A DNA stretch of 64,000 nt from contig NZ_JAVXSJ010000001.1 of the NCBI RefSeq assembly GCF_036643215.1, forward strand, positions 219,531 through 283,530. Reading direction: 5' to 3'. Position 1 is the stretch's first letter. The number at the start of each line of letters is the position of its first letter. Of the stretch, positions 2,456-55,648 are shown piece by piece. This stretch comes from Comamonas sp. GTDB taxonomy: Bacteria > Pseudomonadota > Gammaproteobacteria > Burkholderiales > Burkholderiaceae_C. The position numbers and the translations under genes are program-made. Under the pieces are notes generated by a model. That model had not been told where the DNA came from, did no database searches, and saw only the letters and a list, made by a program, of their open reading frames with translations.

Positions 2456-5400
2456 GTGACCTTGCATTTGACACAGTTTGAGGGTGGAAACGCTCTTAGC
2501 TCGTTCCGCGCTCAACAGCTTTTGACCGATCTGGTCGCTATCCACCCCAAGATCACCAGCGTGTCAGCACGCTTTGTGCATCTGGTGGCTACGGAGGGTG
2601 CTCCGGTTCCCGCATTGCAAGAGCGCCTGTCGGCACTCTTGACCTATGGCGATCCCTACATCGGCACAGCCGAAGGTGTGGCATTTATTGTCACGCCCCG
2701 TCTGGGAACGATCTCGCCCTGGGCCTCCAAGGCGACCGACATTGCCCGCAACTGCGGCCTGAACGTCTTTCGCGTCGAGCGCATGACCGAGTTCCGTGTG
2801 GAACTCAAGTCCGGCATCCTCGGTGGCAAGCCCGAGCTGTCGCAAGAGCAAACCGCGCAAATCGCTGCTCTGCTACACGACCGCATGACCGAATCGGTCT
2901 TTGCCACCCGTGCAGAGGCCGAGCAGCTGTTCACAACCCTGGCTGCAGAGCCCATGGAGTTTGTGGATGTGCTGGGTGGCGGCGCTGCTGCTTTGGAAAA
3001 AGCGAACAAGCAGTGGGGCCTGGCCCTGGCCGAAGACGAAATCGAGTACCTCGAAAACGCCTTCAAGGGCCTGAAGCGCAACCCCACCGATGTGGAGCTG
3101 ATGATGTTCGCGCAGGCGAACTCCGAGCACTGCCGCCACAAGATTTTCAACGCCAACTTCACTATCGACGGTGTGGCGCAAGAGAAGTCGCTGTTCGGCA
3201 TGATCCGCAACACCGAAGCCGTGTCGCCCCAGCACACGGTGGTCGCGTACTCGGACAACGCCTCCATCATGGAAGGTCATGAAGTCGAGCGTTTTACCGC
3301 CAAATTCAATGCTGGCACAGACAGCGTAAGCGCTCCTAGCTATCAAAAAAAGACTGCCATCAACCATGTGTTGATGAAAGTGGAGACGCACAACCATCCC
3401 ACGGCCATCTCTCCGTTCGCAGGTGCATCCACCGGCAACGGCGGCGAAATTCGTGACGAAGGCGCAACCGGCCGTGGCTCCAAGCCCAAGGCGGGTCTGA
3501 CTGGTTTCACCGTGTCCAAGCTCTGGGGCAGTGAAGTGGGCAAGCCTGAGCACATTGCCAGCCCGCTGCAAATCATGATCGAAGGCCCCTTGGGTGGCGC
3601 GGCGTTCAACAACGAGTTTGGCCGCCCCAACCTGACCGGTTACTTCCGCGAATATGAGCAGCAAATCGGCGACATCACCCGTGGCTACCACAAGCCCATC
3701 ATGATCGCTGGTGGTCTGGGCGTGATTGATTCTGAGCAGACGAAGAAAATTCTGTTCCCCGCAGGCACCTTGCTGATCCAGCTGGGTGGCCCCGGCATGC
3801 GCATTGGCATGGGCGGCGGTGCAGCCAGCTCCATGGCTTCGGGCACCAACGCGGCAGAGCTGGACTTTGATTCGGTGCAGCGCGGCAACCCAGAGATTGA
3901 GCGCCGTGCGCAAGAAGTCATCAACCACTGCTGGCAGCAGGGCGAGAAGAACCCCATCTTGGCCATCCACGACGTGGGCGCTGGTGGTATTTCCAACGCC
4001 TTCCCTGAGTTGACCAACGACGCGGGTCGTGGCGCGCGCTTTGATCTGCGCGCTGTGAAGCTCGAAGAATCGGGCATGTCGCCCAAGGAAATCTGGTCCA
4101 ACGAATCGCAAGAGCGTTACGTGATGGCCATTGCCCCTGAATCGCTGGCACAGTTCGCCGCATTCTGCGAGCGCGAGCGTTGCCCGTTTGCCGTCATCGG
4201 CACGGCCACCGAAGAGCGTCAACTGGTGCTGGAAGACACGGCCGTGGAATCTGGCGACCAGAAGTTCCCGGTCGACATGCCCATGGAAGTGCTGCTGGGC
4301 AAGCCGCCCAAGGTGCACAAAGATGTGACCACCGTAGAGCGCGAGCTGCCCGCGATTAACCTGACCGGCGTGGCGCTGGAGCAGGCCGTGATCGATGTGC
4401 TGGCACACCCCACCGTGGCCTCCAAGCGCTTCCTCATCACCATCGGCGACCGCGCTGTGGGTGGTCTGACCCACCGCGACCAGATGGTTGGCCCATGGCA
4501 AGTGCCCGTGGCCGACGTGGCTGTGACGCTGGCGGACTACAAGGGCTTCAAGGGCGAAGCCATGGCCATGGGCGAGCGCACACCGCTGGCCGCCATCAAC
4601 GCTCCCGCCTCGGGCCGCATGGCCGTGGCTGAAGCCATCACCAATATGCTGGCTGCGCCTATCGAGCTGTCCAAAGTCAAGATGTCGGCCAACTGGATGG
4701 CCGCCTGCGGCGAAGCCGGTGAAGATGCTGCGCTGTACGCCACGGTGAAGGCTGTGGGCATGGAGTTGTGCCCTGCGCTGAATATTTCGATTCCCGTGGG
4801 CAAGGACAGCTTGTCGATGCGTACGCAGTGGAGCGAAAACGGTGTGACCAAGAAGGTCACCTCGCCCGTGAGCCTGATCATCACTGGCTTTGCATCGATT
4901 GACGATGTGCGTACCACGCTGACGCCCCAGCTCAATGCCGAGGAAGACGACAGCACCCTGGTGCTGATCGATCTGGGCCGCGGCAAGATGCGCATGGGTG
5001 GCTCGATTCTGGGTCAAGTGCTCAACCAATCCGGCAACGAAGTGCCTGATCTGGACGACGCCAAGGATCTGATCGCTATGGTGGATGCGGTGAATGCACT
5101 GCGCGCCAAGGGCCTGATCCTGGCCTACCACGACAAGGGCGACGGCGGGCTGCTGGCGACCGTGGCCGAAATGGCTTTTGCGGGCCATGTGGGCGTGGCG
5201 CTGAATGTGGACATGCTCATCACCGAAGGCGACGGCATCTCTGACAGCCGAATGGACAGCGGCGAAGGCAAGAACTGGGGCAAGCAAGTCTCCGGCCGCC
5301 GCGAAGACCTGACCCTGCGCGCACTGTTCAACGAAGAGCTGGGCGCTGTGCTGCAGATCAAGACTGCGGATCGCACCGAAGTGCTGCAAGTGCTGCGCGA

Positions 5401-6466
5401 GCACGGCTTGATCCAGTGCAGCCACACCATTGGCAAGACCCGCCCTGTGTCGTCCCCCGTGGATGCTGGCAAGGGCGAGCTGCAAGTGTGGCGCGATGCG
5501 AACAAGGTGTTTGGCGCAACGCTTTCCGACCTGCACCAGGTGTGGGACGCCGTGAGCTGGAAGATTACCCAGCAGCGCGACAACCCCGTGTGCGCCGACA
5601 GCGAACACGCAGCCGCTGGCCAAGCAAACGATCCCGGCATGCATGTGCACCTGACGTTCGACCCCCAGGTCAACGTGGCAGCGCCTTTCATCAACGTGGC
5701 TGCCAAGCCGCGCGTGGCTGTGCTGCGCGAGCAGGGCGTGAACTCCCATGTGGAAATGGCCTACGCCTTTACCGAAGCCGGTTTTGAAGCGGTGGACGTG
5801 CACATGAGCGACCTGCAGGCTGGCCGCGCACAGCTGAAAGACTTTGCTGGTGTGGTGGCCTGCGGTGGCTTCAGCTACGGCGACACATTGGGCGCTGGCA
5901 TTGGCTGGGCACGCTCCATCACGTTCAACGATCGTCTGTCGGAGCAGTTCCAGGCGTTCTTTGGCCGTACCGACACCTTCGGTCTGGGCGTGTGCAACGG
6001 CTGCCAGATGTTTGCCGAACTGGCCGACATCATCCCCGGCGCACAAGACTGGCCGCGTTTTACGCAAAACCAGAGCAACCGCTTTGAAGCGCGTCTGAGC
6101 ATGGTCGAAGTGCTGGAATCGCCCAGCCTGTTCCTGCAAGGCATGGCTGGCTCGCGCCTGCCGATCGCCGTGGCACATGGCGAAGGTTTTGCCAACTTCC
6201 AGTTCCGTGGCAACGCGGATCAGGTCGTCAAATCCATGCGCTACGTGGACAACCACGGCCAGCCTACCGAGCAGTACCCGTTCAACCCCAACGGTTCGGC
6301 CGGTGGTTTGACGGCTGTGACAACGGCAGACGGCCGCTTCACCGCCATGATGCCCCACCCCGAGCGTGTGTTCCGCAACGTGCAGAAGAGCTGGACTTCG
6401 GGCGACAAGTCCGAATTCAGCCCCTGGATGAATGTGTGGCGCAACGCCCGCAAGTGGCTGGGCTGA
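2456..6466 (+). CDS. purL: Phosphoribosylformylglycinamidine synthase (large single-chain type)
   Basis: 1336 aa with [35 protein letters not shown] and a C-terminal glutaminase domain ([14 protein letters not shown]). Confidence 0.98.
3305..3355 (+). repeat. REP-like palindrome copy inside purL (degenerate left arm)
   Basis: gtaagcgctcctagctatcaaaa matches the AAGCGC-N-AGCTATCAAA right half. Confidence 0.55.
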
Positions 6467-6510
6467 TGTTTCAGCGCCGCTGAGAGTTAAACGCTCTTCG
6501 TAAAAAGCAG

Positions 6511-54372: not shown

Positions 54373-54470
54373 TCTGCAGCCCATGCTGCAGATCATTGAT
54401 CTGAACTCTTGAATCTGCGGATTCATCACCCTTTCACGGAGCATGCAGCCAGCGGCTGCATGAAAAGGCT

Positions 54471-55598
54471 TTGGCAACCTCGCGCAAATCCCCGGCATCC
54501 AGCCACGATCACGCACACCAGCATTCGCACAAAAACGGCCATGAAGAGCATGTGCACGACGAGCATTGCGGCCATGAACACCACGCGCATCACGATCATG
54601 TGCATAGCGCCGACGTCAGCTGCTGTGGCCATGACCACAGCCATGGTTCCAGGCACATTTATATCTATTCGCCCTCGGGCGCGGTGCGCGACAAGGCAGC
54701 CTTCAAGCGCGGTATCAAGCAACTGGAGGCTCTGGGCCACGAGGTTGAGGTCGATGCTGATGCACTGACCAGCAGCCAGCGCTTTGCGGGCGATGACGCC
54801 ACGCGTCTGGCCGCCATTCACCGCGCTGCCGCCAGCGGCGCCGATGTGGCACTGATCTCGCGCGGTGGTTACGGCCTCACGCGCATCCTGCCTGGCATCA
54901 AGTACAAGACCGTGGCCAAGGCGATCGCCAACGGCACCAAGTTTGTGGGCCTGAGCGACTTCACCGCCTTCCAGCTGGCCATGCTGGCCCAGACCGGTGC
55001 AACCACCTGGGCTGGCCCCGCGCTGAATGCCGACTTTGGTGTGGACGCCAAGAAAACGGGTGAACCCGTGGACGACATCATGCTCGACTGTTTTGAGGAT
55101 TTGCTCAGCGGTCAGGGCGAGGGCGCAGGCTGGCAAATGCCCAAGATTGGCGAGCTGCCCAACGGCAAGCCCCAGCTCAAGGACTTCTATGTGCCCGGCG
55201 CTGCCACGCTGTGGGGCGGTAACCTGGCGGTGCTGGTGTCCCTGCTGGGTACGCCGTACTTTCCGCAGATTGAGGGCGGCATTCTGTTTATTGAAGACGT
55301 GGGCGAGCACCCCTACAAGATTGAGCGCATGCTCACTCAGCTGATGCTGGCCGGAGTGCTGCAAAAGCAGAAGGCCATCGTGTTTGGTCAGTTCACCGAG
55401 TTCAAACTCACCACGCACGACAAGGGCTTCAAGCTGCAGACCGTCATCGACTGGTTGCGCATGCAGATCAAGCGCCCTGTGCTGCAAGGCCTGCCGTTTG
55501 GTCATGTGCCGACCAAGGTGCTGCTGCCTGTTGGTGCACAAGTGTCTTTGTCCGTGGAAGGCCGTGACGCCCTGATTTACTGGGGTCATACTCATTAA
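54471..55598 (+). CDS. ldcA: LD-carboxypeptidase (peptidase S66) with His-rich N-terminal extension
   Basis: SRGGYG, GLSDFT (Ser nucleophile), GGNL, IEDVGE, LPFGH. Confidence 0.85.
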   Translation: MATSRKSPASSHDHAHQHSHKNGHEEHVHDEHCGHEHHAHHDHVHSADVSCCGHDHSHGSRHIYIYSPSGAVRDKAAFKRGIKQLEALGHEVEVDADALTSSQRFAGDDATRLAAIHRAAASGADVALISRGGYGLTRILPGIKYKTVAKAIANGTKFVGLSDFTAFQLAMLAQTGATTWAGPALNADFGVDAKKTGEPVDDIMLDCFEDLLSGQGEGAGWQMPKIGELPNGKPQLKDFYVPGAATLWGGNLAVLVSLLGTPYFPQIEGGILFIEDVGEHPYKIERMLTQLMLAGVLQKQKAIVFGQFTEFKLTTHDKGFKLQTVIDWLRMQIKRPVLQGLPFGHVPTKVLLPVGAQVSLSVEGRDALIYWGHTH

Positions 55599-55648
55599 TT
55601 GATAGCTGCTGGCGCTTGATCAATAAGCGCTACAGCCTGTTTTTAATG
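55591..55648 (-). repeat. REP-like palindrome copy at the ldcA stop (closest to consensus)
   Basis: Reverse complement aaaaacaggctgtagcgcttattgatcaagcgccagcagctatcaattaatgag. Confidence 0.78.

Follow-up and report, generated by a model that had tools for sequence, protein, structure and literature searches.

What are the short imperfect palindromes that recur along a 64,000-nucleotide stretch of a Comamonas sp. genome (assembly GCF_036643215.1, contig NZ_JAVXSJ010000001.1, positions 219,531 to 283,530; hereafter, the window), how did they arrive there, and what keeps them? A preliminary description of the window had pointed to ten dispersed copies of a unit of about 55 bp, akin to the repetitive extragenic palindromes (REPs) of other bacteria. 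We find that the repeat is spread over the whole genome in a short and a long form and occurs well beyond the genus. Our preferred interpretation, to which we assign a probability of roughly 60%, is that it constitutes a family of non-coding palindromic elements of the REP/REPIN type, ancient in one part of the Comamonadaceae.

An abundant palindrome in two sizes

The shared unit is visible on reading all ten of these places, and a repeat finder connects several of them (its families D1, D5, I1, I3 and I5). The core of the right arm, AAGCGC-N3-4-AGCTAY, occurs six times in the window against 0.02 occurrences expected from dinucleotide shuffles, so that a REP-like family of imperfect palindromes is present beyond chance, as had been proposed. 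When a covariance model built from 80 genomic copies (R1, from alignment A2) was run over the window with its filters off, seven of the ten places gave matches at E<=1.6e-4. An eighth, at 22742, is recovered by a profile hidden Markov model (HMM), while the place at 3305 holds a right-arm fragment and that at 16408 is marginal and doubtful. The eight sound copies correspond to about one per 7-8 kb of the window, somewhat sparser than the one per 6 kb first estimated, and the genome carries one per 8.9 kb.

The assembly that contains the window comprises 4.29 Mb in 84 contigs with 59% G+C. Iterated nhmmer searches of this genome yielded 306 non-overlapping copies of the short form at E<=1e-3, and a joint census of both forms gave 480 loci, 164 long and 316 short or partial, together making up 0.7% of the genome; the same census of the reversed genome, used as a decoy, found zero loci. 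The arms of the family are the commonest 16-mers in the genome (44 occurrences), and the distance between the two arms clusters sharply at two values, 7 nt (66 cases) and 48 nt (102 cases). The short form, about 60-68 nt long, is an imperfect hairpin of 13-16 bp with a 7-nt loop and A/T-rich tails, with the consensus (A/T-rich)AAAnnGCCTCTAGCGCTT-ATnnATc-AAGCGCTAGCAGCTATCAAwTTnga. The long form is a near-perfect nested palindrome of 92-105 nt, with the consensus AAATAATAGCTGCTAGCGCTTGATTTTCATGGGTTTCAGGCTGATATCAGCCTGAAACCCATGAAAATCAAGCGCTAGCAGCTATTATTTTA, whose outer arms are the same as those of the short form (ATAGCTGCTAGCGCTT / AAGCGCTAGCAGCTAT). Folding is predicted to be far stronger for the long consensus (-53 kcal/mol, z=-20) than for the short one (-9.7 kcal/mol, z=-2.9). 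By R1 and the long-form HMM the window contains the short form only, and the unit of about 55 bp in the preliminary description represents that form; the long palindrome fell outside its motif. Pairs of copies 46 nt apart, at first taken for doublets, each proved to be one long-form element whose halves had been scored separately. Judged by the information profile, conservation within copies is highest in the right arm, and the short form has a degenerate left arm.

Tagged REP super-families carry a GTAG or CGTC tetranucleotide at the end of the stem (Di Nocera et al. 2013, PMC3733652). The lack of such tags noted earlier extends to the genome: 5' of the core stem, the 306 short-form copies have CTAG in 83 cases (27%), CAAG in 37, GTAG in 32 (10%) and CCAG in 21, the rest being varied, and the base just 5' of the core stem varies jointly with its pairing partner. 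An untagged class of REP-like stem-loops, with families in M. tuberculosis, Deinococcus, Bordetella, Brucella and cyanobacteria, is expected to be widespread (Di Nocera et al. 2013, PMC3733652). The present family fits this class, with a long form that is REPIN-like in shape and a habit of in-frame insertion like that of the Rickettsia palindromic elements (RPEs). It has in common with the other untagged families that its palindromes are restricted to a lineage, lack terminal tags and have no known mobiliser; it differs from them in its sequence and host lineage and in the two size classes, the orthology across genera and the probable selection on the arms documented here.

The family has apparently not been described so far. 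Full-text searches for its sequence, or for REPs, REPINs or transposable elements of the miniature inverted-repeat type (MITEs) of Comamonas or Comamonadaceae, found no description, and the main text of the two main REP surveys does not mention Comamonas or related genera. Rfam 15 gave no match at gathering score in the window and none at E<=1 around the best genomic copy. A match to an already catalogued family, which would have removed the novelty, was thus not found in Rfam, in the literature searches or in the main text of those surveys.

Distribution, age and constraint on the arms

The preliminary description had suggested a lineage-specific repeat. With R1, the family was found in all 24 sampled Comamonas genomes, at 1 to at least 125 copies each, and in 20 of 60 from other genera of the same host family, ten of which hold 19 to at least 84 copies with scores as high as in the window genome; whole-genome copy numbers in these other genomes are lower bounds. 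It was present in none of 16 from other families of the order, and neither 72,556 plasmids nor 50,697 phages gave a match to the element. The repeat is not specific to one species or genus.

Most copies are orthologous between species, and even between genera. All 51 strong copies compared between the window genome (G000) and a sister species (G023) stand at orthologous sites, and in a more distant genome (G014), 8 of 14 sites are shared and 6 are not. When the highest-ranking copies of three other genera were taken as starting points, 10 tight syntenic spacers were obtained, and 8 of these hold a copy in the window genome too. Between G000 and G023, identity is 94.1% in the right arm, 91.9% in the left arm and 83.2% in the loop, compared with 93.0% in coding and 89.7% in other intergenic DNA, the difference between the right arm and other intergenic DNA having p=2e-5. 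The corresponding values are 89.5%, 77.6%, 61%, 88.6% and 74% for G000 and G001, and 79.6%, 76.8%, 52%, 71.8% and 39% for G000 and G014. Because the arms match or exceed the conservation of coding DNA while the loops drift, these alignments indicate purifying selection on the sequence of the arms and none on the loop, and indicate that most copies are old. Conservation of the arms across genera favours a binding or structural role for them.

The 7-nt loops deserve a separate remark, as their identity of 83% at the 51 orthologous sites of G000 and G023 lies below the 89.7% of ordinary intergenic DNA, which suggests that mutation may be raised in the hairpin loop. We also note a long-form copy at about position 247970 of contig C12 in G014 that is missing from the orthologous spacer of the window genome (C1:324390-324415), which is 77 nt shorter. 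In such comparisons of empty sites, with G014 or with other genera, the spacers and junctions are too diverged to fix the exact boundaries of insertion.

Placement, spread and competing explanations

Copies favour the 3' ends of genes and co-directional spacers and avoid the divergent spacers that bear promoters: convergent, co-directional and divergent spacers hold 94, 158 and 9 copies, where spacer length predicts 41, 154 and 67 (p=1e-26 by chi-square). The check for strand bias gave none, since the orientation relative to co-directional genes is unbiased (65 vs 64), and relative to local GC skew, taken as a mark of the replication strand, there is no significant bias (p=0.055). A family of structured RNAs under selection as RNA, be they cis-regulatory hairpins, small RNAs or intrinsic terminators, would sit well with the predicted hairpin and with copies lying within or at the ends of transcription units, and two window copies supply a Shine-Dalgarno sequence or a start codon. 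The random orientation to co-directional genes speaks against such a family, as do an almost complete lack of covariation and the failure to match Rfam even at E<=1, and on these three grounds a structured RNA or riboswitch-like element was set aside. In addition, the short form ends in TATCAAwTTT with no T-run after the stem, which together with its random orientation departs from the architecture of an intrinsic terminator, and a listing of short-form copies shows separate canonical terminators beside many of them. We consider selection at the RNA level very unlikely and rank it last among the explanations. Random orientation likewise rules out, genome-wide, the GGAG tail as a systematic Shine-Dalgarno sequence, a function that holds for single copies such as that at 39665.

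Direct repeats of 2-8 nt are not in excess at the boundaries of 102 long copies, whichever offset from 0 to 25 is assumed, so the check for target-site duplications came out negative; old copies could have lost them. This result bears directly on the possibility that the family is a classical MITE: an insertion sequence that has lost its interior and is moved by a DDE transposase, for which the 16-19 bp arms would serve as terminal inverted repeats. The short form would be a further deletion derivative. Such an origin would account for the two discrete sizes and for the near-perfect inverted arms about 48 nt apart in 102 long copies, and in-frame intragenic copies are known for MITEs too (Coxiella, PMC5896051; enterobacterial RU elements, PMC2759123). 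Apart from the missing duplications, it fits poorly with an element that is one continuous palindrome in its entirety and not at its ends alone, and with zero matches on plasmids and phages; no parent element was noticed, arm pairs flanking an open reading frame (ORF) not having been systematically searched. We regard a MITE origin as unlikely. The Correia elements (NEMIS) of Neisseria, of about 100-150 nt, have long inverted ends and two size classes, are often co-transcribed with their neighbours, and have no identified transposase. The Comamonas family is like them in its scale of about 100 nt, its long inverted ends, its two size classes and its transposase not being identified; Correia elements, however, duplicate a TA target and carry integration host factor and promoter motifs, whereas no duplication was found here.

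The REP/REPIN interpretation would instead have the copies spread by a trans-acting enzyme working on hairpin or single-stranded DNA and leaving no duplication, presumably of the HUH/Y1 type as for REPs. The absence of duplications, taken with the hairpin form, favours an HUH-type mechanism over a DDE transposase. Spread would now be slow, and the copies still present might persist because selection favours a sequence-specific function of their arms, most likely as a protein-binding site, as a 3'-end hairpin shaping mRNA decay or read-through, or as a local DNA structure. Roles of this sort are described for the REPs and bacterial interspersed mosaic elements (BIMEs) of E. coli. With the REP/BIME families of Enterobacteria and Pseudomonas and with systems of REPINs and REP-associated tyrosine transposases (RAYTs), the Comamonas family has in common that its short imperfect palindromes number in the hundreds, are mostly extragenic, lie at gene 3' ends and occur in both orientations. 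Further shared traits are the lack of target duplication, vertical inheritance with long persistence, and a single-copy Y1/HUH gene in the genome; the long form, as a REPIN does, makes a long hairpin of about 100 nt overall. The family departs from REPs and REPINs in having no conserved GTAG/CGTC tag and in that its arms are not stem-loops themselves.

The sole Y1/HUH gene of the genome (C3:219054-219758, 235 aa; PF01797, 46 bits) is the only PF01797 match and lies on another contig than the window, where no Y1/HUH gene was found; the earlier statement that no transposase is in view thus stands for Y1/HUH genes, to which the screen was limited, other transposase families not having been searched. 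The protein scores 66.5 bits with NF047646 (REP-associated tyrosine transposases), under the cut-off of 80, and its motif NHFHLLL aligns to the HUH motif of ISDra2 TnpA. Of 41 Comamonas genomes, 39 have the gene, in single copy and vertically inherited, and the ones with hardly any repeats are among these 39. A RAYT is recognised by being flanked by its REP or REPIN and by the high abundance of its flanking 16-mers (Bertels et al. 2017, PMC5581495). By these criteria, the RAYT-like gene is not a REPIN-associated RAYT.

Several observations weigh against the REP/REPIN interpretation. In 12 genomes, R1 finds no copy within 1.5 kb of the RAYT-like gene. The 16-mers that flank the gene occur at most twice in the genome, a background frequency, compared with 44 times for the family arms, and its presence does not track the repeat: it occurs in 59 of 61 genomes of the host family, among them 40 that lack the repeat, and two Comamonas genomes (G010 and G021) have no such gene yet hold 113 and 61 copies. 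An HUH gene does exist in the genome and is near-universal in the family with or without the repeat, but, unlike in REPIN-RAYT systems, it is unlinked to the repeat; flanks, 16-mer frequency and phylogenetic profile being all negative, the RAYT was rejected as mobiliser, nothing ties it to the repeat, and no mobiliser was identified. No recent insertion was caught either: 0 of 51 sites differ between the sister species, which leaves current mobility unproven. Compensatory covariation is weak, with 71.4% of cells paired compared with 70.4% in shuffles, and its near absence would place the constraint on sequence rather than on pairing alone. Finally, the gene contexts given here derive from a rough home-made gene caller.

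The conservation of arms with free loops raises another possibility, namely that the repeat is a recognition site of the host that has been multiplied, bound for example by a nucleoid or supercoiling protein, or else an uptake-signal-like sequence, and that selection or molecular drive spreads and maintains it. Arms at orthologous sites that are conserved like or above coding DNA would be expected of such a site, as would the lack of transposase linkage at the flanks of the RAYT-like gene. The copies also lie at gene ends, as do the paired uptake sequences of Neisseria. What makes this account quite unlikely in our view is that an ordered sequence of about 60-105 nt, with its inner hairpin and A/T tails and a fixed spacing of 7 or 48 nt, is common to the copies, and that coding insertions, seen against outgroups, are whole units reaching new places. 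The density of about 1 per 9 kb is, moreover, far under that of known uptake sequences, which are much denser.

Returning to the REP/REPIN interpretation, one may extend it to suppose that a conserved host protein, either the RAYT-like HUH protein or another factor, recognises the arms (AAGCGCTAGCAGCTAT and its complement) as its sites. The population would then be a domesticated, selection-maintained system for structuring the genome or the ends of transcripts in several Comamonadaceae genera, with the repeated donation of linker peptides of 18-30 residues to core proteins (RpoN, HrpA, NrdJ, GluQRS and PurL) as a by-product. We hold this extension to be rather doubtful; if true, it would represent a REP-protein partnership without genomic linkage.

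Copies inside genes and along the window

Not all copies are extragenic, several of them sitting inside genes. At 34 of the 480 loci in the genome (about 7%), an open frame runs through the copy and shows coding potential on either side; 15 of the 34 are long forms. The consensus has stops in all three frames on one strand and in one frame on the other, which explains why in-gene copies mostly share the strand of the gene and are mostly read in one frame. They yield peptides such as ..AL..QAQAAIK.., 18-30 codons long, mostly in inter-domain linkers. By Pfam, the ordinary genes that act as hosts in the window encode a DUF5682 protein, PurL and an AtuC-like carboxyltransferase, and those in other parts of the genome encode NrdJ, an FdsB-like protein, GluQRS, an FtsX permease, HemD, ComEC, a fused acyl-CoA carboxylase, HrpA, a UvrA-like protein, PxpBC, TamB and RpoN (in region II). 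A match in methylmalonyl-CoA mutase was a false positive, being native sequence and not a copy. In this respect the family resembles the Rickettsia RPEs, the Coxiella MITEs and the enterobacterial RU and ERIC elements, palindromes that lie in frame in housekeeping genes and are translated as an extra peptide; it differs from RPEs in that only about 7% of copies are intragenic, in the shorter peptide (18-30 codons), in a free-living host with 59% G+C, and in having no sequence relation to them.

Comparison with outgroup proteins demonstrates insertion for two of these genes, GluQRS and HrpA. In GluQRS, all 33 matched outgroup genomes (one per family of the order) match in two pieces separated by 2-8 residues where Comamonas has 37-40, and are thus about 30-35 residues short at the site of the element; a single Comamonas species is 26 residues short at this place. 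In HrpA there are 54 residues at the site compared with 10 in E. coli HrpA. No clean full-length indel was found for DUF5682, RpoN region II, the AtuC-like gene or PurL, where the segments fall within variable linkers that exceed those of the comparators by 4-8 residues.

The in-gene copies of the window have lost the hairpin. Two lie in the DUF5682 gene (11229-13784; Pfam match at residues 25-826), the product of which is 94% identical to its C. suwonensis counterpart. The first, at 12201-12268 on the plus strand (R1 39.2 bits), forms about residues 325-346, read as ..NRAVAQDGKALVAIKEG.., and its hairpin is decayed (fold z=-0.9); orthologues in the C. testosteroni clade have a strong copy (up to 37 bits) at this site, and those in the koreensis clade have another linker. 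The second, at 13701-13768 on the plus strand (29.9 bits, E=3.4e-5), makes up the last 25 or so codons of the gene (stop at 13782-13784), beyond the end of the Pfam domain at residue 826, and the C-terminal tail derived from it is conserved as protein in orthologues; the VWA gene starts at 13787. A degenerate copy at 33614-33681 on the plus strand (27.7 bits, E=1.6e-4) lies in frame in the AtuC-like (geranyl-/methylcrotonyl-CoA carboxylase beta) gene, in a linker between domains. It is 80% identical over 40 nt to 12225-12264 (repeat family D5), and this linker exceeds by 7-8 residues that in the beta structures of P. aeruginosa geranyl-CoA and methylcrotonyl-CoA carboxylases. The right-arm fragment in purL (3305-3360, plus strand) is a core match only, exact at 3328-3343 (AAGCGCTCCTAGCTAT), with no match to R1 or the HMMs; it is read in a different frame, in a PurL 7 residues longer than that of Salmonella.

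The remaining sound copies stand between or at the ends of genes. The best in the window, at 55587-55654 on the minus strand (R1 70.2 bits, E=2.4e-17), has a predicted single-stranded DNA hairpin of -11.5 kcal/mol (z=-3.5); according to Pfam assignments of its neighbours, it overlaps the final codons of an LD-carboxypeptidase gene (end 55598) and lies 20 nt upstream of a small gene at 55674-56144, for a 156-aa protein with only weak helix-turn-helix matches. The copy at 39665-39732 on the plus strand (54.4 bits; fold z=-3.2) stands between an acyl-CoA dehydrogenase-like gene (end 39671) and a BKACE gene (start 39734), to which its right tail, AAGGAGC, supplies the Shine-Dalgarno sequence; the BKACE domain begins at residue 4 of the ORF at 39734. 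The copy at 52921-52988 on the plus strand (45.9 bits) follows a gene ending at 52907 and contains the ATG, at 52972 (a AGCTATGGA variant), of the next ORF (52972-54372), in which a TadA-like cytidine/adenosine deaminase domain, beginning at residue 8, is fused to an alpha/beta hydrolase. The copy at 6661-6728 on the plus strand (37 bits, E=2.5e-7) lies in the spacer between purL (end 6466) and a SWIM-zinc-finger gene (start 6755), both named from Pfam. The latter opens a co-directional group, 6755-15007, for the SWIM zinc-finger protein, two more genes, the DUF5682 protein (851 aa) with its two repeat copies, and a VWA CoxE-like protein. A diverged copy at 22742-22809 on the minus strand, marginal with R1 (21.4 bits, E=0.012) and found by the long-form HMM at E=4.6e-5, marks a convergent junction of a GGDEF gene (end 22783) and a minus-strand exonuclease gene (end 22809), again by Pfam. 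The weak and possibly decayed copy at 16406-16451 on the minus strand (R1 E=3.3; long-form HMM E=0.014), between a DUF808 gene (end 16415) and an OmpW gene, is alone not significant. An extra weak candidate, absent from the preliminary description, lies at 18325-18392 on the minus strand (20.6 bits, E=0.021).

Other repeats were encountered along the way. Two alike stretches of about 100 nt around a block of catabolic genes in the window (23460-23600 and 49040-49180), each with TTATCCCC...GTGGG...TTAAAAA(A)TAG, gave no match to either model of the REP-like family. Seeming tandem arrays with a period of about 378 nt proved to be a different, non-coding module of about 310 nt in alternating orientation with a REP-like copy at each junction (period about 375 nt; direct period about 750-766 nt). 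There are 11 copies of this module at four loci of the same genome (C7:31970-33400, C25:28180-29160, C4:72229-72890 and C4:179576-180229), with no significant Rfam match. A second abundant repeat family, unrelated to the REP-like one, has nested G+C-rich hairpins and the core GCTGCGGGGCGGCCCTTGC in 34 exact copies, for example at C1:129381, C2:37601, C2:213385 and C3:25192, with none in the window.

This study adds an apparently undescribed and very abundant repeat family for Comamonas and related genera. Knowing it is useful for annotation, as its copies lengthen ORFs, provide start codons and ribosome-binding sites, and lead gene callers astray. The some 30 natural in-frame insertions offer material on how palindromic DNA turns into a protein linker. 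Here is a REP-like population conserved at orthologous sites across genera, with arms that appear constrained beyond coding DNA and no linked RAYT, and with it the question of what host role such REP-like elements may have, and what recognises them, becomes testable in the tractable C. testosteroni.

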